Shown here: positions 2,867 through 21,276 of the stretch, piece after piece
Numbering within the stretch: position 1 is the first letter of the stretch
Layout of the letters: each line of letters starts with the position of its first letter
Source of the DNA: Escherichia phage MX01
Sequence record: NC_031934.1
Reading direction: 5' to 3' (one strand)
DNA: 64,000 bases
Program-made: the position numbers and the translations under genes
Notes under the pieces: generated by a model
The model's database searches: none
What the model was told of the DNA's origin: nothing
The model's input: only the letters and a program-made list of their open reading frames with translations

Positions 2867-3067
2867 TTAGTTACTTGAATCGACCTTATAGACTTGTCCG
2901 CGGGTTTGGTAAACTTCGCCGTCCCATGTCTCGACTGTAATAGTCACGTATTCTGCAAACTGAGGTCTAGTATCAGTCCAGATATAACCGTATTCGCCGG
3001 TGACGAGCGTAACCCAGTACTTTCTCATAAAGTCTCCTTTTGTATGGCACCAATTAGTACCATACAT
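2867..3067 (-). CDS. hypothetical protein, 66 aa
   Basis: ATG-initiated ORF immediately upstream of gene 39. Confidence 0.45.
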   Translation of the reverse strand: MYGTNWCHTKGDFMRKYWVTLVTGEYGYIWTDTRPQFAEYVTITVETWDGEVYQTRGQVYKVDSSN

Positions 3068-3072
3068 ATTTA

Positions 3073-4890
3073 TTACGACATCCAGGCCTTACGGAGTTGA
3101 GGGTCATTACCAAGGAGCATTTCGAACTGTTCTTTCCAATCTTCAGGTAATTGAACAACATCAAATTTAGGGTCTTGAATCATTCGACGGTATTCAGCTT
3201 TCTCAAGAGAACCTAGTCCTTTGATATAGCGAATAGAATGTTTTGGTAGAGAGTCCTTAGCTTTGGTATAACTAGGGACATCATAGAACCATTCCTGTTC
3301 TTTACCAACCTGGGCAATAATTACCGGAGTTTTACAGAAACGTACTCGGCCTTGTTCGAACAATTCAGGCCATTGACTAAAGAAGGCTAGCAATGATGGA
3401 TAAATCGAGCCAGTACCATCCACATCGGCATCAGTCATAATAGCAATATTACGATAGTTAGTTTTCTCTGCAGGTTCACCAATAACCAATCCAGTGATTG
3501 CACAGATATCAAATAGTTCCTTGTTCTTCATGATATCTGTTGCTGTCATTCCCCAGGTATTCATAACCTTACCACGTAATGGATAGCCACCTTGAAGGTC
3601 TTTATTACGAACTTCAATGAAAGGACCCATAGCGGAATCACCTTCGGTTAGGAACAGGGTTGTATCGGCATCTTTGCCGTATAAGTTAGCTTTAATATGC
3701 TTATGGACCTTGGCTTTAGAAGCTTTCTTAGCGGCTTTAGTTTCAGCTGCCTTTTCGGCTGCTAATTTACGTGCTAAAGCAGCTTCAACGATAGGCATAA
3801 TCAACCCATCGACCTTAAGAATAGCTGTGGCAATTTTCTTAGCATCAATTTGGATATGGTTACGAATCTCGCCAAATGGAGATGTTAAGCGCTCTTTAGT
3901 CTGTGAATCAAAACGCATGTTGCTCATATCACGAATGAACATCACCATCGTAAGGCATTCTTTAACTCGTGCCTTACTTACTTCGATGCCTTTATATTTC
4001 TTCTTGATGCCTGGCAAGAGATGTTCGCAGATATCATCAAACACACATTCAACATGATGACCACCATTCTTAGTATGAATATTGTTCACATAAGTTAGGT
4101 GACGGAATCCATCCGGAGAAGGAGTAAATGCCATTGAAACATTATCAGTTTCTTGGATTACAAAGTCTTCACCAAATTGCTTAGCATACTTTTTAAAGTT
4201 GCCATCTACTTTTTTACCATTAAAAGTAAATTGAATATCAGGATAAATTACGGCCAGAGTTTGCAATCGGTCTAATGTAATATCCAGATAAATTTGCGAC
4301 AGGCTATTTTCTTCGAAATGGCTAAAGTCCGGAGTGAATATAACAGAAGTACCCTTACCTTTAGATTTCTTAGTAGACCAACCTTTGTTTTCCATTCCGT
4401 TTGAACAGTTGACAGTAATCTCATTCTCACCATCAGAGGTGATGCCTGTGAACAAAACAGAGAAGATATTAGTTAAACTACTACCGACACCATTCATGCC
4501 GCCTGTCTTACGCTCAGTGTCATCTCCAAAGTTACCACCTGCCTTTGGAATAGTCCATGCAGCTACAGGACCTGGAATTTGTTCACCGTTTTGATCGATG
4601 ACCATTGCTTGTGGAATACCACGACCATTATCAGAAACTGAAACCTGGTTATTCTTAATTTGGACATCAATTTTATTTGCGAATTTAAAATTGGTACGAA
4701 TAGCTTCATCGACAGAGTTATCAATGATTTCGTCAATTAATTTAACCAGCCCAGGAACATAGTTTACCTGTGTAAAATTACCAAACAGGAATCGACCGTG
4801 AGCTTCATTAGCACTGGAGCCAATATACATCCCACTACGTTTTTTGATATGTTCAATGTCGGACAGTACTTTAATTTCATTCTTAATCAT
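3073..4890 (-). CDS. 39: DNA topoisomerase II large subunit (GyrB-like ATPase + Toprim; unsplit 39/60 form)
   Basis: 605 aa with GHKL ATPase N-terminus and Toprim region; size fits fused gp39+gp60. Confidence 0.88.
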   Translation of the reverse strand: MIKNEIKVLSDIEHIKKRSGMYIGSSANEAHGRFLFGNFTQVNYVPGLVKLIDEIIDNSVDEAIRTNFKFANKIDVQIKNNQVSVSDNGRGIPQAMVIDQNGEQIPGPVAAWTIPKAGGNFGDDTERKTGGMNGVGSSLTNIFSVLFTGITSDGENEITVNCSNGMENKGWSTKKSKGKGTSVIFTPDFSHFEENSLSQIYLDITLDRLQTLAVIYPDIQFTFNGKKVDGNFKKYAKQFGEDFVIQETDNVSMAFTPSPDGFRHLTYVNNIHTKNGGHHVECVFDDICEHLLPGIKKKYKGIEVSKARVKECLTMVMFIRDMSNMRFDSQTKERLTSPFGEIRNHIQIDAKKIATAILKVDGLIMPIVEAALARKLAAEKAAETKAAKKASKAKVHKHIKANLYGKDADTTLFLTEGDSAMGPFIEVRNKDLQGGYPLRGKVMNTWGMTATDIMKNKELFDICAITGLVIGEPAEKTNYRNIAIMTDADVDGTGSIYPSLLAFFSQWPELFEQGRVRFCKTPVIIAQVGKEQEWFYDVPSYTKAKDSLPKHSIRYIKGLGSLEKAEYRRMIQDPKFDVVQLPEDWKEQFEMLLGNDPQLRKAWMS

Positions 4891-5223: not shown

Positions 5224-5400
5224 TCACTTAGTCAGCAGGTCGTAAAAACCGCCATTAACATGTTTAGGAGCCGAGACTAACCGAACAGCCAGCCGATGGC
5301 AATCAGGACAAACATCATTATCTCTTTCAGAGATTTTCTTGATTTTTTCGTATTCTTTTGCACAGTCTTCAGATTGGCATTTGTAATCATAAAGTGGCAT
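5224..5400 (-). CDS. zinc-ribbon protein, about 58 aa
   Basis: CxxC...CPDC pair; start moved to ATG (MPLYDYKC) preceded by AAGGAG. Confidence 0.5.
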   Translation of the reverse strand: MPLYDYKCQSEDCAKEYEKIKKISERDNDVCPDCHRLAVRLVSAPKHVNGGFYDLLTK

Positions 5401-5611
5401 TATAAGTCTCCTTCCAGAATTCAGTACCTTCAGCAGTGATTTCACGGAACACTGCATAGATAGGGGTTTTATCACCCTGATTTTCGTATACATAAACCGA
5501 CGATAAATGAGAAAACGTATCAGAATGTTCCTTTTGAACCACGATTAAATCAGGGTTGAACAGAACATCTTCAAATTCTTCACGAGTCGAGTTCATCGTA
5601 ACTTTAGCCAT
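5387..5611 (-). CDS. hypothetical protein, 74 aa
   Basis: ATG start with upstream promoter-like element at 5642-5671. Confidence 0.5.
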   Translation of the reverse strand: MAKVTMNSTREEFEDVLFNPDLIVVQKEHSDTFSHLSSVYVYENQGDKTPIYAVFREITAEGTEFWKETYNATL

Positions 5612-7646: not shown

Positions 7647-8321
7647 TTATCGATTTTTTATACTTAATGGGTCAGGATTCTCAGGGACATCTTCCAAGCC
7701 CAAGGCGTACCGTTGAGCGTATTTCAGCATCAAGATATCCTTGGCACAGTCATGGATGGAGTCATGAGCAACAAAGCCATTCAATGTTCCGTTAGGCAGA
7801 GGACACATGCTCAATCCACGAGTTAGTGAATATGCTTCAATAGCTGTACGGATGTCACGTTGGTTCCAGAATTTAACCGGTTCTAATTTACTGGTATCGA
7901 TTTCATTCTCAGGAACCCCTTCAGAACGATAAGCATCACGAATAAGGTCGACTAAGATAGGAAAGTCAAAGGACATTCCACGACACCACATCTGTGATTT
8001 CCATTGGTCCACTTCGTTTTTACGGCAGTATTCCAGGAAATTACCAAGGCCAATAGAAGTGGACACATCAATTTCAGATGGAGCCAGGTTTTTACGTGCT
8101 TCAGGTCCTTGCTCTTTCCACCACTGTAACGTGCTTTTAGAAAACAGACGTTTATCACGTTGAGAAGCGAGGTCAAATTTAATACGAAGGCCACGTTGAG
8201 TAAGCTCTTCAAACGTTTCTACAACCTCAGGATTAGGGTCGTAAGCAATTACGGCTAGGTCGATAACCGCTGCATTTTGAGTAGTGGCAAAGGTTTCAAA
8301 GTCAATAATTATATCTTTCAT
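7647..8321 (-). CDS. dexA: exonuclease A (DEDD-type 3'-5' exonuclease)
   Basis: 224 aa; IIDFET motif and strong similarity to recalled T4 DexA. Confidence 0.85.
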   Translation of the reverse strand: MKDIIIDFETFATTQNAAVIDLAVIAYDPNPEVVETFEELTQRGLRIKFDLASQRDKRLFSKSTLQWWKEQGPEARKNLAPSEIDVSTSIGLGNFLEYCRKNEVDQWKSQMWCRGMSFDFPILVDLIRDAYRSEGVPENEIDTSKLEPVKFWNQRDIRTAIEAYSLTRGLSMCPLPNGTLNGFVAHDSIHDCAKDILMLKYAQRYALGLEDVPENPDPLSIKNR

Positions 8322-14869: not shown

Positions 14870-16209
<1,340 letters not shown>

Positions 16210-16236: not shown

Positions 16237-16265
16237 ATAGTATCATATCTACCTGGGATGTAAAC
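16237..16265 (-). promoter_or_regulatory. early promoter (GTTTAC-N17-TGATACTAT)
   Basis: Canonical cassette upstream of the PD-(D/E)xK-like gene/dam. Confidence 0.65.
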
Positions 16266-16271
16266 TGATTT

Positions 16272-16279
16272 TATAAATA
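16272..16279 (+). promoter_or_regulatory. late promoter TATAAATA, plus strand
   Basis: Exact TATAAATA 22 nt upstream of plus-strand ATG at 16301. Confidence 0.5.
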
Positions 16280-16300: not shown

Positions 16301-16501
16301 ATGGGCAGTATTTTTTACCAAATCTGGAAATTGGCCGAAAAGAAAGACAAGAAAATGATGTTAGGTTTTCTTGCGCTAGACGTATTCCTTTGGAATCTTC
16401 TAGTAGTCCCTGTAGCCGCTAGCCAAGGGATAATTTTACCAGCGGTTACAATGGAACACGTGTTAAGCATAATTGGATTCTTTAGCGGAATTCCTGCCTA
16501 A
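16301..16501 (+). CDS. small hydrophobic (membrane) protein, 66 aa, plus strand
   Basis: Strong AGGAGG SD 5 nt before ATG; TATAAATA late promoter upstream; convergent with gene 61. Confidence 0.5.
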   Translation: MGSIFYQIWKLAEKKDKKMMLGFLALDVFLWNLLVVPVAASQGIILPAVTMEHVLSIIGFFSGIPA

Positions 16502-17526
16502 ATTTTGGAATATTTTGAAAGTCTCATTTTAGCCATTAGACCTTGGGCTATATTAGCTTTCATATATGCCAATACATCATTTATATCAGCTTTATCTTTC
16601 ATAATCATATCATTTATATCTTTAGAAGGCCATGGAGCCTTGTCCCAGAATAGAACCCTTTCGCCAGCATCAACTAATCGTTGCATACGCTTAATTGTGT
16701 CAGGATGGCGGGGTTCATTGTCCATTACCCAGGCACGTGTTTCTTTACAAGGAACCATAGCCAAGTCCAATGACCCACCAGTAATTGCTATTGCATTCGG
16801 TACGAATAATGAATCGATAGGACCTTCCATTACCCACACCAACTGACGTTCGTCAACTGTATCCATTCCATATATTTTTGTAGCTTGGTCGTGAGCTTTT
16901 ATTGTAATATATTTTTGTGGAGCATCTTTACGTAAGGCTCGACCCTGAAAACTTTCAATTTGTTTATTCTTATTGAAAATTGGAATAACCAAACGAGGCT
17001 CAGGCATTTCTTTAGAATAGGTCCCTGGATTCACAGAGTTAACTAATGCAGGCCATTCTTTAGTAAACCACAGCCGATTCCATTTGTTTTCAGGAATGCA
17101 ACGCGACGTCACATATTTGATAATAGGATGGTCCTTTGGCATTCTATCCAGACGTTCACAGAAATTAAGTTTTTCGATGACAGGCATCTTGGCTTTAATC
17201 TTTTCTGATATCTCCACCTTAGGTGCAGCTTGTCTCCCGAACGATTGCTCTTTATGTTTCTCAAGAATATATTCACGATATAAATCAGGCTCATATTCGT
17301 ATAGATACTTCTTAATTCCTGCTGAATAGTCACAGTTAAAACAGTGTAGCATTACGGACCCGTCATTAGCCGGATAGGCCCAAAAACGAGCTTTGTTCTC
17401 ATCTTTTTGGGAGTCACCACATACACGACAGCGACAGTTTAATTTAAAATCACTACCAGTTACTTGTCTGAATTTAGGTTGGTAATTCAAGGCACGTACA
17501 GCAAATTCTTTATCGACATATGACAT
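16498..17526 (-). CDS. 61: DNA primase
   Basis: 342 aa, same length as T4 gp61; N-terminal zinc ribbon CRCRVCGD...CFNCD. Confidence 0.88.
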   Translation of the reverse strand: MSYVDKEFAVRALNYQPKFRQVTGSDFKLNCRCRVCGDSQKDENKARFWAYPANDGSVMLHCFNCDYSAGIKKYLYEYEPDLYREYILEKHKEQSFGRQAAPKVEISEKIKAKMPVIEKLNFCERLDRMPKDHPIIKYVTSRCIPENKWNRLWFTKEWPALVNSVNPGTYSKEMPEPRLVIPIFNKNKQIESFQGRALRKDAPQKYITIKAHDQATKIYGMDTVDERQLVWVMEGPIDSLFVPNAIAITGGSLDLAMVPCKETRAWVMDNEPRHPDTIKRMQRLVDAGERVLFWDKAPWPSKDINDMIMKDKADINDVLAYMKANIAQGLMAKMRLSKYSKI

Positions 17527-17564
17527 TATTTTTCCTTGGGCTCTAAATTAATAGAGCCATTATA

Positions 17565-17726
17565 TCATTCGTTTTCGGATTTTTCTTTACGCTTTTTAGA
17601 TGGGATTTGTTCAGGCCCTTTATTGACGACTGCGCCTGAGGTAGTTCCGGAGGCAATAGCAGTAGGATTACCACCTGCATCGCCTGCGACCATATCTTCG
17701 TTCATAACTTCTTTAAAAGATTTCAT
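17565..17726 (-). CDS. small protein, 53 aa (not in ORF track)
   Basis: ATG with AGGAG SD directly downstream of a TATAAATA late promoter. Confidence 0.45.
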   Translation of the reverse strand: MKSFKEVMNEDMVAGDAGGNPTAIASGTTSGAVVNKGPEQIPSKKRKEKSENE

Positions 17727-17739
17727 AGGCTCCTGGCCT

Positions 17740-17747
17740 TATTTATA
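17740..17747 (-). promoter_or_regulatory. late promoter TATAAATA
   Basis: Exact TATAAATA directly upstream of AGGAG-ATG of 53-aa ORF. Confidence 0.5.
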
Positions 17748-17934
17748 TTACGAAAATAGCTTTATCACCATTTGCATCAGTGACTTCATAGGTATCTTCG
17801 TGGTAAAGTGGAATAATCCAAGTCACACCATCATCAGCAATAATATGGATAGCTTCTTGGTCTTTTGATATGATTTCATATTCTTCGAATAACTCGAATA
17901 CAGAAATCTTAGAGCCCGTACACATTGCACTCAT
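17743..17934 (-). CDS. hypothetical protein, about 63 aa
   Basis: Start moved to ATG with GAAGGG SD. Confidence 0.4.
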   Translation of the reverse strand: MSAMCTGSKISVFELFEEYEIISKDQEAIHIIADDGVTWIIPLYHEDTYEVTDANGDKAIFVI

Positions 17935-18130
17935 ATTGTTCCCTTCTTTCAATCAGTTGGCGATGGGCCTTTTTAAGTTTACGAAGCTGGCGCTTAGTCG
18001 GCCGTGCAACATAAGCTTGAGTAGTTACTCGTCCAAAAACACCGTACTTAGGTGAAGGAGAATCGATAAAGACTTCCCACTGGCAGGAGTAACCATATAC
18101 CGCTTTAGAGAATTGAGTTAAAACAAACAT
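17909..18130 (-). CDS. hypothetical basic protein, 73 aa
   Basis: ATG 1 nt after stop of upstream gene. Confidence 0.45.
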   Translation of the reverse strand: MFVLTQFSKAVYGYSCQWEVFIDSPSPKYGVFGRVTTQAYVARPTKRQLRKLKKAHRQLIERREQYECNVYGL

Positions 18131-18131
18131 A

Positions 18132-18572
18132 TTAACCTCGATTCATAAAGGCATTAAAAATCTGGTCGTCAATTGAATAAACCGGAGCTTCCAGAATTTT
18201 CAACAGACTGTTTTTGATATACTTGCTAGGGATATCCATATTAACGCGGTCGTTCAATTCGTTGTCCGGGTGGATATCTTTAAATTCAAACCCATCAAAC
18301 TCAACCTTGTCAGGAATACCATCGGCGAAAAAATAAACCAATTGGTGCATTGTATTGCATGAAAATAATTTAGACCTCACCGCAATAAGTTCTTGCCAAT
18401 GGTTTAATTCTCTGTTAAGAAGTTTATGAGCCATTGTAATTCGATCATCGCTATCAACAAGAAAATAACCTAGGTATTGGTGGTCGTCGCTCCAAAACAT
18501 CCTGTATGCTTGTGCATTTGGATTTTTACAACGAAGTTTTTTGATAACCAAATTTCTGTTAATCTTATTCAC
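18132..18572 (-). CDS. hypothetical protein, 146 aa
   Basis: ORF in insertion between genes 61 and 41. Confidence 0.55.
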   Translation of the reverse strand: MNKINRNLVIKKLRCKNPNAQAYRMFWSDDHQYLGYFLVDSDDRITMAHKLLNRELNHWQELIAVRSKLFSCNTMHQLVYFFADGIPDKVEFDGFEFKDIHPDNELNDRVNMDIPSKYIKNSLLKILEAPVYSIDDQIFNAFMNRG

Positions 18573-18858
18573 CTGTCACCTCTTTAACGATGTTTTTGTT
18601 ATCGAAATTAGCGTCACAATACAGAACATAGTTATACTGCATAACGCCGCTTGAAGCCAATTGGTCTGACACTTCTTTAACCATATCAGGGCGGTCACGT
18701 TTAGTGATGTTCATGATATCAGCATAAATCTGATGTTCGACTGATTCTTGGTCTGCAGTCATAGACCATTCACAAAGGTCTTTATCAAGTCCAGCAGTAA
18801 CTGGAGCTGTACCACATGATGCTACGGCAAGAATTGCTGCGATTAATAACTTTTTCAT
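18565..18858 (-). CDS. predicted lipoprotein, 97 aa
   Basis: Signal peptide with lipobox VASC; AGGAG SD; own early promoter. Confidence 0.55.
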   Translation of the reverse strand: MKKLLIAAILAVASCGTAPVTAGLDKDLCEWSMTADQESVEHQIYADIMNITKRDRPDMVKEVSDQLASSGVMQYNYVLYCDANFDNKNIVKEVTGE

Positions 18859-18886
18859 AATGTTCTCCTCGGTAGTTGATAGGGAT

Positions 18887-18916
18887 AATATACTGCATTA
18901 TCCCTTTGATGTAAAC
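18887..18916 (-). promoter_or_regulatory. early promoter (GTTTAC-N18-TATATT)
   Basis: Cassette upstream of lipoprotein gene. Confidence 0.55.
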
Positions 18917-18918
18917 TG

Positions 18919-19122
18919 TTATTTTTCGTTAGAACGGTAATCACACTCAAAAACTTTATTGTCATCAACAAAGGCTTTCACCAGCGCATTATTCACTTCT
19001 GCATACTGCACTGTAACCCATTCAATCATATTTTGGTCACTAACATCCAGAACGGTTTCTTTGGTAAACATATTACCATTTTCAAACCAACCAATAAACA
19101 CTACTTTCTCTAATTTAGGCAT
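18919..19122 (-). CDS. hypothetical protein, 67 aa
   Basis: Small co-oriented ORF. Confidence 0.45.
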   Translation of the reverse strand: MPKLEKVVFIGWFENGNMFTKETVLDVSDQNMIEWVTVQYAEVNNALVKAFVDDNKVFECDYRSNEK

Positions 19123-19440
19123 TTAGATTTCCTCACAGAAGGCCCATTCTGCGTGAAACACAGTAGCGCCTTTAGTATCATTTAAACAAACCACATCTAC
19201 CGGAGCAATTACACGATAAAGACGAGGTTCTCCTCCCACTGAACGAGCTGCTCGTCCAGCATAAATCTTAGCCAAACCAATATCTTCAGTAAAGAACACA
19301 CGATTTAGGTTTTTCTTACGACCAGTTTCAGACAGAACTCCTGTCTCCTCAGGAGGACAAAGCATATTACCGATATTAGCAACACTACAACTTCCGTGAT
19401 AATACACTTTATATTCTGCTTTACAGTCGATGGTTTTCAT
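19123..19440 (-). CDS. hypothetical protein, about 105 aa, with YHGS motif
   Basis: Track start is TTG; moved to ATG preceded by GGAG; early promoter 19465-19493. Confidence 0.55.
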   Translation of the reverse strand: MKTIDCKAEYKVYYHGSCSVANIGNMLCPPEETGVLSETGRKKNLNRVFFTEDIGLAKIYAGRAARSVGGEPRLYRVIAPVDVVCLNDTKGATVFHAEWAFCEEI

Positions 19441-19464
19441 TTTGTTCTCCAAGTTGATAGGTCT

Positions 19465-19493
19465 ATAGTATCATGCCTATAGGAGATGTAAAC
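19465..19493 (-). promoter_or_regulatory. early promoter (GTTTAC-N17-TGATACTAT)
   Basis: Canonical cassette directly after gene 41 terminator. Confidence 0.65.
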
Positions 19494-19500
19494 CCTTAAA

Positions 19501-19522
19501 ACAAAAAAGGAGCCGAAGCTCC
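19501..19522 (-). terminator. rho-independent terminator after gene 41 (GGAGC-TTCG-GCTCC then TTTTTT)
   Basis: Hairpin abuts gene 41 stop; T6 run. Confidence 0.65.
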
Positions 19523-20962
19523 TTAAAATTTGATAGATGCTGCTAAATCATCTAAATCACTTCTATTAACACGCGTCTGTCGATTGACCTCGGCCTGGCG
19601 ATTCATCTCACCTGTAGCCTCACGAACAGTGTTCACTGGGCCTGGGTTGGAATCGTCTTCAACTTCGTACCAACGTTGATTTCCTTTCTTAACACCAATC
19701 TTAAATTTGTTGTAGTAGCTCTTATCACCGTAACGAGATTTAAGCTGCTTAACCATCTGCATACCCATCTGAGCAAACTCTTCTGTCTCGACCACGCCTA
19801 ACATGAAGTCTGCAGTATGTGCAATACCAAAGGATTCAGCAATATCGGCCATATCGATTTCGGCTGCAACGTTCGCACCACGAGTAGTCTGGGCTGCAGT
19901 CCACAACAGTAATTTCTTCTCTACTGCAAGTCCACGTAGTTCTTCGGCAACCATCTTAATCAATCCGTAACTGTTTTCAGAGAAAACTTTCGTACGAGAT
20001 GATGCACAGATAGCCAAGTAGTCGACGATAACAACCTGTGGGACAAAGTTTTGTTTAAGCTTGTATTCGTTTAATAATGCACGGAAGGTATCGGCATTAG
20101 CACCACCGGTAGGATACTGTTTAATCTTTAAACGACCTAAAGTAGCAGTTGAACGCCATTTATCCATCTTAGCTTTGTATTCAGGCCAAGAGACATGACC
20201 ATCATCGATATCATCCAGTGATACATCCAGAAGGTTGGCATCGATACGCTTAGCACATACTTCCTCTGCCATCTCCATGGAGATATAAAGAACGTCGTAA
20301 CCAGATTGAAGGTAATCAGCAGCCAATGAACACAGACCAAGAGACTTACCTACGTTTGTTCCTGCCAACAATACGTTTTCAGTACCAAACTCAGCACCAC
20401 CCTTGGTAATCTTATTCAGAATATTAAGACGGAATGGAACCTTACGTGCTTTATCGGAATAACTTTTGAATCGTTCTTCATAGTCATCCATCCAGTCATG
20501 ACCTAATTCAGAATCGAAACAAATCGATAATGCATCACGCATGATATCTGGAATAGCACCAATACCTGGAAGTTTTCTATTTTGTTGCTCAACCGGAAGG
20601 TCGGCATTAGTTTGGATTTCAATGATTTTTGAAGTTGCATTATACATCGCTGCTTTCTGAACGTATTTCTCCGTCTCTTTAACCAACCATTCTTGGTCTT
20701 CAGGTCCAGCATTCAGTGAGCTTAAAAGCTCTTTAGCTCCTTGATGTTCGACTTCTGAAAGCGTGCTGTTATCTAATGCAATGCTCAATGCGTTCTTGGA
20801 AGGCACTGCATTATATTCATTGACGTGTTTTTTAATTTCTTTGAAAAGGGTCTTTGCTGGACCCTGGTCAAAATATGAATCATTCATATAAGGCCAAACC
20901 TTAGTGAAATAATCACTATTGCCTAGCAGTTGAGCCAAAATAGTTTCTACCACTTCCACCAC
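19523..20962 (-). CDS. 41: replicative DNA helicase (DnaB-like)
   Basis: 479 aa; Walker A GTNVGKS; T4 gp41 size and position. Confidence 0.9.
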   Translation of the reverse strand: MVEVVETILAQLLGNSDYFTKVWPYMNDSYFDQGPAKTLFKEIKKHVNEYNAVPSKNALSIALDNSTLSEVEHQGAKELLSSLNAGPEDQEWLVKETEKYVQKAAMYNATSKIIEIQTNADLPVEQQNRKLPGIGAIPDIMRDALSICFDSELGHDWMDDYEERFKSYSDKARKVPFRLNILNKITKGGAEFGTENVLLAGTNVGKSLGLCSLAADYLQSGYDVLYISMEMAEEVCAKRIDANLLDVSLDDIDDGHVSWPEYKAKMDKWRSTATLGRLKIKQYPTGGANADTFRALLNEYKLKQNFVPQVVIVDYLAICASSRTKVFSENSYGLIKMVAEELRGLAVEKKLLLWTAAQTTRGANVAAEIDMADIAESFGIAHTADFMLGVVETEEFAQMGMQMVKQLKSRYGDKSYYNKFKIGVKKGNQRWYEVEDDSNPGPVNTVREATGEMNRQAEVNRQTRVNRSDLDDLAASIKF

Positions 20963-21276
20963 CTCTTAGATTTAATTTTATCCAGTTCTTCTTGTATTTG
21001 CATTGTAACACATTTTTCTACATGAAGCGCTAGCTCTTCTTTTCGGTCTTCGGAAGGTGTTCCGAAATCAACCGACACTTTTCCATCTTTCTCAATAACA
21101 ATATTCATCACATAAACGATGTGAGCAGTGCCATCGGGTAAAGTAAGCATAATTTCCTGCTTAACAGAACCCATTGACTTACGGATTATATCTAATGATT
21201 TCTCATAATAACGAGGGTCACTAGGACCCTCTTCAGCATCTTTAACAAAATTATCTAAATCAGATAAATCAGTCAT
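20947..21276 (-). CDS. hypothetical protein, 109 aa; positional equivalent of T4 gene 40
   Basis: Located between uvsX and 41 as gene 40 is in T4; sequence not verified. Confidence 0.5.
   Translation of the reverse strand: MTDLSDLDNFVKDAEEGPSDPRYYEKSLDIIRKSMGSVKQEIMLTLPDGTAHIVYVMNIVIEKDGKVSVDFGTPSEDRKEELALHVEKCVTMQIQEELDKIKSKRWWKW

Follow-up and report, generated by a model that had tools for sequence, protein, structure and literature searches.

Between primase gene 61 and helicase gene 41 of Escherichia phage MX01 (NC_031934.1) we analysed a gap of 1,996 bp, within a window of 64,000 nucleotides taken from the phage genome. The source phage is a Dhakavirus, that is, a JS98-like T4-type phage. 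Positions 17527–19522 of the window correspond exactly to the gap, since the start of gene 61 lies at 17526 and the stop of gene 41 at 19523. Seven consecutive, tightly packed ORFs cover about 90% of it, and genes 41, 61 and all seven gap genes lie on one common strand. This agrees with a preliminary description of the DNA, which had counted six to seven small ORFs in a gap of about 2 kb. The features are listed below from the gene 41 side to the gene 61 side; promoter calls are consensus matches.

19507–19524, minus strand: hairpin AAGGAGC-TTCG-GCTCCTT and then a T-run, immediately past the stop of gene 41; terminator-like in a terminator scan.
19465–19492, minus strand: early promoter TTTACA-N16-TACTAT with TG upstream of the -10 element; precedes the 105-aa gene and dmd.
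19123–19440, minus strand: 105-aa gene, ortholog of RB69 orf040c and JS98 orf34; no T4 counterpart.
18919–19122, minus strand: dmd (61.5), 67 aa; Pfam Dmd 4.7e-22, 78.5 bits against a cut-off of 27.
18887–18915, minus strand: early promoter TTTACA-N17-TATATT, a one-mismatch variant of the early consensus, just upstream of sp.
18565–18858, minus strand: sp (61.3), Spackle, 97 aa; full-length match to Pfam T4_Spackle (PF25676), 9.5e-43.
18132–18572, minus strand: 146-aa gene in the slot occupied by adfA (61.2) in T4 and RB69; its GTG start overlaps the sp stop.
17909–18130, minus strand: gene for a 73-aa TifA-family (DUF7279) paralog, equivalent of JS98 orf29; Pfam DUF7279 67.5 bits against a cut-off of 24.5.
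17743–17934, minus strand: 63-aa gene, ortholog of RB69 orf033c and JS98 orf28; phrog_3249, 8.9e-34.
17740–17747, minus strand: TATAAATA, resembling a late promoter; it lies across the stop codon of the 63-aa gene and 13 nt ahead of the ATG of 61.1.
17565–17726, minus strand: 61.1, 53 aa; 79% identity to T4 61.1 and 96% to JS98 61.1.
17539–17558, minus strand: hairpin GGCTCT-N8-AGAGCC, past the stop of 61.1 and ahead of the ribosome-binding site of gene 61.

The seven ORFs were accepted as real genes because each of them matches an existing phage protein family in PHROGs, with E-values from 1e-24 to 1e-95. The likely start of the 105-aa gene is the ATG at 19440 rather than the TTG at 19452, and that of the 63-aa gene is the ATG at 17934 rather than the TTG at 17952. 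NCBIfam returned zero matches for all gap ORFs. The GC content of the gap did not differ from that of its flanks, and an Rfam scan of positions 17300–19700 gave a single sub-threshold match (ES239, 25 bits against a gathering score of 62) and no known RNA element. ORFs on the plus strand, for example one of 110 aa at 17536–17868, were treated as spurious and rejected, because they are antisense to conserved genes and unannotated in the related phage records examined.

The gene order uvsX-40-41-[small genes]-61 is shared by T4, RB69, JS98, LHE83, E33, ABTNLsp5, MIZ3 and Konradin. In T4 (NC_000866) the interval between 41 and 61 holds five genes in 1,648 bp, namely dmd, 61.4/tifA, sp, 61.2/adfA and 61.1. 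Among the Dhakavirus relatives, whose DNA is 94–98% identical to that of MX01 (JS98, LHE83, vB_EcoM-E33), LHE83 and vB_EcoM-E33 display the identical seven-gene layout at 98% DNA identity. The JS98 interval (orf26–orf35) has eight annotated genes, or nine with an unannotated ORF, and all seven MX01 genes are present there. RB69 carries 11 genes (orf041c, orf040c, dmd, 61.4, imm.1, imm, sp, adfA, orf033c, orf032c and 61.1), the RB49-like Krischvirus MIZ3 four and Acinetobacter phage Konradin 17.

The preliminary description had read the genes as an insertion without a counterpart in T4 and had proposed a synteny comparison as the check. This comparison finds a small-gene block in T4, RB69, JS98 and the RB49-like Krischvirus alike, and the insertion claim is refuted because T4 itself carries the block between 41 and 61, the finding by which the description had asked to be judged. 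What speaks for a novel cassette having been inserted in this lineage, at a junction empty in T4, is that three of the seven genes (105, 146 and 63 aa) have no full-length T4 homolog. RB69 and/or JS98, however, carry these three between 41 and 61 as well, and the other four are homologous to genes of the same T4 interval (Dmd 59%, Sp 70%, 61.1 79%, TifA family 34%). Both early promoters are also positioned as in T4 and there is no compositional anomaly, so that an insertion of this kind is almost certainly not what happened.

By BLASTP, Dmd is 59% identical to T4 Dmd and 86% to that of JS98. In the literature as quoted in PMC9391042, Dmd is an antitoxin-like inhibitor of the RnlA/LsoA toxins; judged by homology, MX01 Dmd would bind and neutralise toxins of this type. 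Spackle is 70% identical to T4 Sp by BLASTP, with a profile match of 145 bits over residues 1–96. It has a hydrophobic N-terminus and cysteines at positions 15, 29 and 81; Cys29 and Cys81 form a disulfide pair in the T4 Spackle structure (PMC7677548). T4 Sp is a superinfection-exclusion factor that binds and inhibits the gp5 tail lysozyme domain (PMC7677548). From this homology, the MX01 protein would be exported to the periplasm and would inhibit the tail lysozyme (gp5) of any superinfecting phage.

The signal peptide of Spackle combines a lipobox-like VASC motif with a VTA|G signal-peptidase-I site. We scored lipoboxes with a PROSITE-like rule, which asks for a Cys at positions 15–35 after a basic, hydrophobic N-terminus. 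Two lipoproteins had been predicted in the gap; Spackle alone passes this rule, and no second candidate emerged from all possible starts in the gap on both strands, nor does any other ORF have a hydrophobic N-terminus. The canonical lipobox (L/V)-A-S-C with Cys15 is kept in T4, RB69 and JS98, as would be expected if Spackle, here and in T4, were a membrane-anchored lipoprotein and not a soluble periplasmic protein. We regard this as rather improbable: mature T4 Spackle comprises 75 residues after the loss of 22 (PMC7677548) and thus begins at residue 23, and the VTA|G site, 8 residues past the Cys, is conserved.

MX01 has no gene in the slot between dmd and sp where tifA/61.4 canonically lies, and its DUF7279 gene is not adjacent to dmd. 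The 73-aa protein is 34% identical to T4 TifA (E 1.5e-10), shares with it the W-E and PTKRQxRxxK core, and its central basic cluster RPTKRQLRKLKKAHR aligns with the core of T4 and RB69 TifA. The 61.4 proteins of T4, RB69 and JS98 match the same DUF7279 model with 71–73 bits. TifA proteins from T2, T4, T6 and RB69 inhibit ToxN, and the homologs vary in potency (PMC9391042). On the strength of homology, the 73-aa protein would be a TifA-type inhibitor of ToxN-like toxins. The 63-aa gene overlaps the preceding gene by 26 nt, and its product gave BLASTP identities of 95% to JS98 orf28 and 66% to RB69 orf033c. Conservation within the block is widest for 61.1, which always lies directly upstream of gene 61. 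Krischvirus MIZ3 has a 58-aa homolog within its 41-61 gap, and in Konradin the 61.1 motif forms the C-terminus of a 158-aa gene adjoining 61. A literature search on 61.1 function found nothing specific.

The 146-aa gene is restricted to Dhakavirus-type phages. In BLASTP against T4 61.2 only residues 133–146 align, at 100% identity; the codons of this tail, SIDDQIFNAFMNRG, differ from those of T4 by five synonymous and no non-synonymous changes. The Pfam AdfA family (PF23813) scores 16.1 bits against a cut-off of 27. With the tail, hhalign reports a probability of 97% between the 146-aa protein and the AdfA family, and 3.8% when the tail is removed. The AlphaFold2 (AF2) model has a pLDDT of 73, with residues 1–98 well predicted and the tail below 50; a Foldseek search of BFVD with the model retrieved its own family, a 118-aa protein and nothing else, AdfA being absent. 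The protein thus matches AdfA by its position and its 14-residue tail only, and every other AdfA test failed.

It was also considered whether the gene is a true AdfA ortholog, shortened but still able to neutralise DarT toxins, or, as a variant of this idea, whether its product represents one copy of a domain duplicated in AdfA. The shared slot downstream of sp and the identical C-terminus, which is under purifying selection, would fit, and the tail-less hhalign run does contain a weak N-terminal alignment (P = 0.011) that includes the K..NAQ.Y and G(F/Y)(E/D) motifs. Against this stand the sub-threshold Pfam score, the low tail-less probability and the BFVD result. In addition, the 146-aa protein has no confident counterpart of the AdfA segment around residue 164, by which DarT1 neutralisation is determined (PMC11257639). 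We therefore consider orthology unlikely. The protein would instead join the AdfA C-terminal peptide to an N-terminal domain without detectable similarity, and could be an alternative anti-toxin cassette of different specificity, which is the most likely though less firmly based assignment. The adfA slot may accordingly be a swap site, at which unrelated N-terminal domains are combined with a conserved SIDDQIFNAFMNRG peptide that docks to a common partner.

The 105-aa gene ends where dmd begins, its stop codon adjoining the dmd start (TAAATG), and its product is 88% identical to RB69 orf040c. The structural model is predicted to adopt a minimal Arr/Tpt1-like ADP-ribosyltransferase (ART) fold; the best structural matches were Arr (rifampin ADP-ribosyltransferase), the KptA/Tpt1 RNA 2'-phosphotransferase and the AcrF11 anti-CRISPR ART. 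An H-G-[ST] motif closes the first strand. H15 and G16 are invariant among the homologs and E103 is kept in at least 90% of them. The Pfam Arr-ms model gives 15 bits on the 105-aa protein against a cut-off of 25 and matches three of 51 homologs; three larger relatives linked by profile (P0171, P0174 and P0192) score 27–30 bits across the same domain. A PDB sequence search with the family profile gave no match at E up to 10, and a literature search on the function of the family found nothing specific.

The family occurs in the 41-61 island of phages with hosts from Escherichia to Acinetobacter, and its predicted ART domain is also a module in giant proteins of the polyvalent type (for the polyvalent protein concept see PMC5512222). 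The 105-aa protein is shorter than Arr (about 140 aa) and, compared with Tpt1, has no RNA-binding lobe. As a free-standing ART it would presumably modify a component of host defence or a nucleic-acid end, a weaker suggestion than the fold itself. On the basis of the model it could be an NAD+-dependent counter-defence enzyme of T4-like phages. That the gene encodes an uncharacterised mini-ART and a new enzyme of this kind, or else that the adfA slot is a swap site for the SIDDQIFNAFMNRG tail, is a tentative proposal to which we give a real but minority chance.

The promoter at 19465–19492 fits the T4-type early consensus TTTACW-N16-18-TAYWAT without a mismatch. This pattern occurs 17 times in the 64-kb window, always on the minus strand, against 0.65 matches expected by chance. 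An early-type promoter is likewise positioned after gene 41 in T4, RB69 and JS98, and a T4 dmd-tifA early promoter has been described (PMC9391042). The site at 18887–18915 was the top promoter-like site of the scan, with 10 of 12 positions matched. GTTTAC...TA(C/T)(T/A)AT is found directly upstream of sp in T4, RB69 and JS98, and a promoter downstream of tifA is mentioned for T4 (PMC9391042). The suggestion that the small ORFs have their own early promoters thus holds for these two sites, placed as in T4, and not for one promoter per ORF. The late promoter proposed for the 53-aa ORF has a TATAAATA copy at 17740–17747, which is kept in JS98 and missing from T4 and RB69. The motif is not enriched (seven in the 64-kb window against 6.6 expected), and at this chance frequency the copy is a putative and unproven late promoter only.

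The hairpin at 19507–19524 is identical in JS98 and ABTNLsp5, and RB69 has a related one. In sequence it looks like the stem-loop half of a PeSL-type unit, i.e. of a stem-loop combined with an early promoter (promoter-early stem-loop, PMC4122927). At the opposite end of the gap, RB69 has a hairpin at the same spot between 61.1 and 61 with another stem sequence, whereas in T4 merely 2 nt separate the two genes. The gap genes are probably transcribed early, from the stem-loop and early-promoter unit after gene 41, from the promoter before sp and by upstream transcription reading through into the gap. Several of them are probably translationally coupled, because their stop and start codons abut or overlap.

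Taken together, the gap is very probably the Dhakavirus (JS98-group) allele of the accessory 41-61 block of T4-type phages, which in T4 reads dmd-tifA-sp-adfA-61.1, with the expression and functions proposed above and with a gene content that is reshuffled among relatives as cassettes are gained, lost and replaced. The T4 interval was named the 'anti-TA island', with Dmd, TifA and AdfA as anti-toxin factors (Srikant et al. 2022, PMC9391042; for AdfA and DarT, PMC11257639). The expectation of a hyperplastic region harbouring superinfection-exclusion and anti-defence genes was therefore right and already published (Sp, PMC7677548; Dmd, TifA and AdfA, PMC9391042).

The presence of the block in T4 had been expected to make it core, which does not follow, as its content varies apart from 61.1. 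A core, essential part of the helicase-primase replication module would be consistent with a location between two replication genes that is kept across distant T4-like phages, with 61.1 always adjoining gene 61, and with the 105-aa homolog of Konradin, which is 74% identical where the primase is merely 55%. We nevertheless judge this very improbable. The number of genes ranges from 4 to 17 and their identity differs even within the genus, with seven genes here against about 11 in ABTNLsp5. T4 mutants in adfA and in tifA remain viable where the host lacks the corresponding toxin system (PMC11257639, PMC9391042), RnlAB protects only against T4 lacking dmd (PMC9391042), and such functions as are known relate to host toxins and superinfection rather than to replication.

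As the T4 61.1-61.5 region, the block is already known, its role as an island for anti-toxin and superinfection-exclusion functions is published, and the finding is an ordinary one. The gain is a correct gene-by-gene map with dmd, sp and a displaced TifA paralog, and with neither AdfA nor a canonical tifA. From this map, MX01 and T4 would be expected to be unequally sensitive to DarTG, and possibly to host defences of the ToxIN type as well. The conserved mini-ART and the C-terminal tail common to adfA-slot genes provide leads for new anti-defence genes, and on our overall assessment the mini-ART is the sole part worth following up. The JS98-type layout has been in GenBank since 2007.

The block resembles the PeSL cassettes known from hyperplastic regions of T4-type phages (Arbiol 2010, Comeau 2014) in that a stem-loop is followed by TTTACW-N17-TAYWAT straight after gene 41, and this boundary is one at which related phages differ by an entire gene. 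Unlike those cassettes, this gap has one clear stem-loop and promoter unit only, with a putative part in shuffling. Compared with MX01, JS98 has 61.4 and the unannotated 46-aa Cys-rich ORF in addition, both between dmd and sp. Salmonella phage ABTNLsp5 also has this pair and adds to it a second dmd paralog and, following gene 41, a 125-aa gene of the size of orf041c. RB69 provides orthologs of two MX01 genes that T4 lacks, orf040c and orf033c; its block further contains imm and imm.1 (Imm.1 being a true lipobox protein) and a full-length AdfA. With T4, MX01 shares the position, strand and flanks of the block (uvsX-40-41 ... 61), orthologous dmd, sp and 61.1, a TifA-family member, and early promoters at matching places after gene 41 and before sp. 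T4 differs in having neither the ART-like gene nor the 63-aa gene, while in MX01 tifA is absent from its canonical slot, a paralog is placed after the adfA slot, and adfA is replaced by a gene that retains the last 14 residues of AdfA alone.

The region 17527-19522 is precisely the gap between helicase gene 41 and primase gene 61, 1,996 bp in length. Throughout this region of the window the genes lie on the minus strand, in the order uvsX, 40, 41, seven small ORFs and 61. Genes within the gap were assigned by BLASTP and Pfam.

Genes of the 41-61 region, with identities and Pfam scores
21269-22441, minus: uvsX
20947-21276, minus: gene 40
19523-20962, minus: helicase gene 41
19123-19440, minus: 105-aa gene (length from ATG); 88% identical to RB69 orf040c, 99% to JS98 orf34; no T4 homolog
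18919-19122, minus: Dmd, 67 aa; 78.5 bits; 59% identical to T4
18565-18858, minus: Spackle, 97 aa; 145 bits, full length; 70% identical to T4
18132-18572, minus: 146-aa gene (JS98 orf30) in the adfA slot, downstream of sp; match to T4 61.2/AdfA limited to the last 14 residues (100%)
17909-18130, minus: 73-aa DUF7279 protein, TifA family; 67.5 bits; 34% identical to T4 TifA, PTKRQxR core in common
17743-17934, minus: 63-aa gene; 66% identical to RB69 orf033c
17565-17726, minus: 61.1, 53 aa; 79% identical to T4
16498-17526, minus: primase gene 61

The seven ORFs take up about 90% of the gap, with neighbouring stops and starts that abut or overlap (TAAATG, GTGAATAA, TAATATG and one 26-nt overlap), and GC content (0.35-0.42) does not depart from the flanks. 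Since each of the seven matches an existing PHROG family (E-values 1e-24 to 1e-95), they are real genes, as the preliminary description had held. A megablast search with 16400-21000 matched 289 phage records, the best being Escherichia phages LHE83 (97.9%, full length), vB_EcoM-E33 (97.6%) and the JS98 group (about 94%), all of the genus Dhakavirus. Mechanical ORF calling placed the start of gene 41 at the GTG at 20962 (479 aa). Because gp41 of T4 and RB69 aligns only from residue 4 onward and gp41 has 476 aa in the E33 annotation, translation more likely starts at the GTG at 20953; the 454-aa gp41 annotation of JS98 looks truncated.

The block had been taken for an insertion with nothing comparable in T4. 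The synteny comparison proposed as a check refutes this, with the very outcome named as contrary: the T4 reference record has dmd (61.5), 61.4, sp (61.3), 61.2 and 61.1 between 41 and 61, on the same strand, in 1,648 bp.

Genes in the 41-61 gap of T4-type phages
T4: 5
RB69: 11
JS98: 8 annotated, plus one unannotated 46-aa ORF
Salmonella phage ABTNLsp5 (Dhakavirus): about 11
Krischvirus MIZ3 (RB49-like): 4
Acinetobacter phage Konradin: 17
MX01 (the window): 7

As T4 and the other T4-type phages compared carry genes here, the block is not an insertion; it is a variable but universally occupied interval of T4-type genomes. The unannotated JS98 ORF (5261-5401 of that locus) is Cys-rich (CxxC...CxxC), lies between dmd and 61.4, and is annotated in ABTNLsp5, which also has a second, 64-aa Dmd paralog (Pfam Dmd, 2.8e-15) labelled 'translational repressor protein' (2956-3096 and 3301-3495 of the ABTNLsp5 locus for the two genes). 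The DUF7279 model is also matched by 61.4 of T4, RB69 and JS98 (71-73 bits). The place between dmd and sp where tifA canonically lies is empty in the window and occupied in JS98.

The gene downstream of sp ends, in its last 14 codons, in the tail SIDDQIFNAFMNRG (window 18132-18176, minus; T4 locus 4132-4176; RB69 locus 8003-8047). The tail is identical in T4 AdfA and the 146-aa Dhakavirus protein, has SV in place of SI in RB69, and also occurs in phrog_4122 (118 aa). Between the window and T4 its codons differ by five synonymous and no non-synonymous changes, a sign that the peptide itself is under selection. Outside the tail, the 146-aa protein has no detectable similarity to T4 AdfA. Alignment of the two families with hhalign gave 97% probability, falling to 3.8% once the last 16 columns were removed, and a BFVD fold search with the 146-aa model (pLDDT 73) returned its own family and one 118-aa protein; AdfA was not among the matches. 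Membership in the AdfA family was therefore rejected. We read the slot as one in which varied N-terminal domains are joined to one conserved C-terminal peptide.

Immediately past gene 41 lies a hairpin (AAGGAGC-TTCG-GCTCCTT plus T-run, 19507-19524), followed by TTTACA-N16-TACTAT at 19465-19492. The T4-type early consensus given for promoter-early stem-loop (PeSL) elements is TTTACW-N17-TAYWAT (PMC4122927). With the spacer widened to 16-18 nt, exact matches number 17 in the 64-kb window against 0.65 expected, so this site class is real. All 17 are on the minus strand, and early transcription units can be read off them directly for the whole window. A second early-type site, TTTACA-N17-TATATT, lies at 18887-18915 upstream of sp. 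Both positions carry early-type promoters in T4, RB69 and JS98 as well, in agreement with the reported T4 early promoter of dmd-tifA and a further T4 promoter downstream of tifA (PMC9391042). Thus the ORFs do have early promoters, but two rather than seven. A late promoter had also been proposed for the 53-aa ORF (61.1). The motif TATAAATA is indeed present before it (17740-17747), but at chance frequency (7 copies in the window, 6.6 expected) and with no copy at the T4 or RB69 counterpart; the promoter is putative only, and its leader would be only about 8 nt.

Downstream, between the 61.1 stop and the ribosome-binding site of gene 61, lies a hairpin (GGCTCT-N8-AGAGCC, 17539-17558, minus). 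In RB69 the same position is taken by a hairpin whose stem differs (GGCCTTA...TAAGGCC), so the conserved element may be the structure and not the sequence; the T4 spacing is only 2 nt. A solitary plus-strand 66-aa ORF (16301-16501, phrog_2024) overlaps the gene 61 3′ end by 4 nt, has similar plus-strand ORFs in the same place in RB69 (ORF029w), E33 and LHE83, and has TATAAATA 22 nt upstream (16272-16279, plus). It may be a late gene within an early region. Beyond it, a minus-strand 186-aa ORF (15649-16209) with its own consensus early promoter (16237-16264) overlaps the start of the Dam methylase gene (14870-15649; 75% identical to T4 Dam). Its match to Pfam DpnII, a GATC-specific restriction endonuclease, is weak and sub-threshold (E 9e-4; 19 bits, cut-off 23). 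Both this ORF and dam are missing from the closest relatives, LHE83, JS98 and E33, where 61 is followed directly by 56. Tequatrovirus-like phages show a comparable 'dam / hypothetical / dCTPase' order, their DNA being only about 73-74% identical.

Within the interval, only the 105-aa gene could open up something new. It has 114 homolog clusters (45-98% identity) in T4-like phages of Escherichia, Enterobacter, Serratia, Pantoea, Erwinia, Pectobacterium, Proteus and Acinetobacter, with H15-G16 invariant and E103 nearly so. In Konradin it is 74% identical and likewise in the 41-61 gap, the primase being only 55% identical. Searched with a profile, 1.84 billion proteins yielded 245 relatives, many of them domains within proteins of 250-3,900 residues, some of which also have ART-PolyVal (ART, ADP-ribosyltransferase), NUDIX, GNAT, Toprim or ddrB-ParB domains. 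The "polyvalent proteins" reported from phages and plasmids have this architecture (PMC5512222). Several large relatives score above the Pfam Arr-ms cut-off over the homologous stretch. The label "ADP-ribosyl transferase" is already given to the family in some GenBank records; we found no paper on it.

Two lipoproteins had been predicted in the gap. A PROSITE-like lipobox rule applied to all possible starts gave one match, Spackle (MKKLLIAAILAVASC...), and none of the remaining ORFs has a hydrophobic N-terminus. Even Spackle is doubtful as a lipoprotein. Signal cleavage leaves T4 Spackle as a mature 75-residue periplasmic protein in which Cys29 and Cys81 form a disulfide (PMC7677548); the MX01 protein retains both cysteines and the VTA|G cleavage site.

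The suggestion of superinfection exclusion or anti-defence was right by the published functions of the T4 homologs, and such a role of the block is established knowledge. Spackle blocks superinfection through inhibition of the gp5 tail lysozyme (PMC7677548), the RnlA toxin and ToxN are inhibited by Dmd and TifA (61.4), respectively (PMC9391042), and AdfA (61.2) neutralises DarT (PMC11257639). By homology, we infer that the Dmd, Spackle and TifA-type proteins of MX01 have these functions. The corresponding T4 region has been named a possible "anti-TA island" (PMC9391042).
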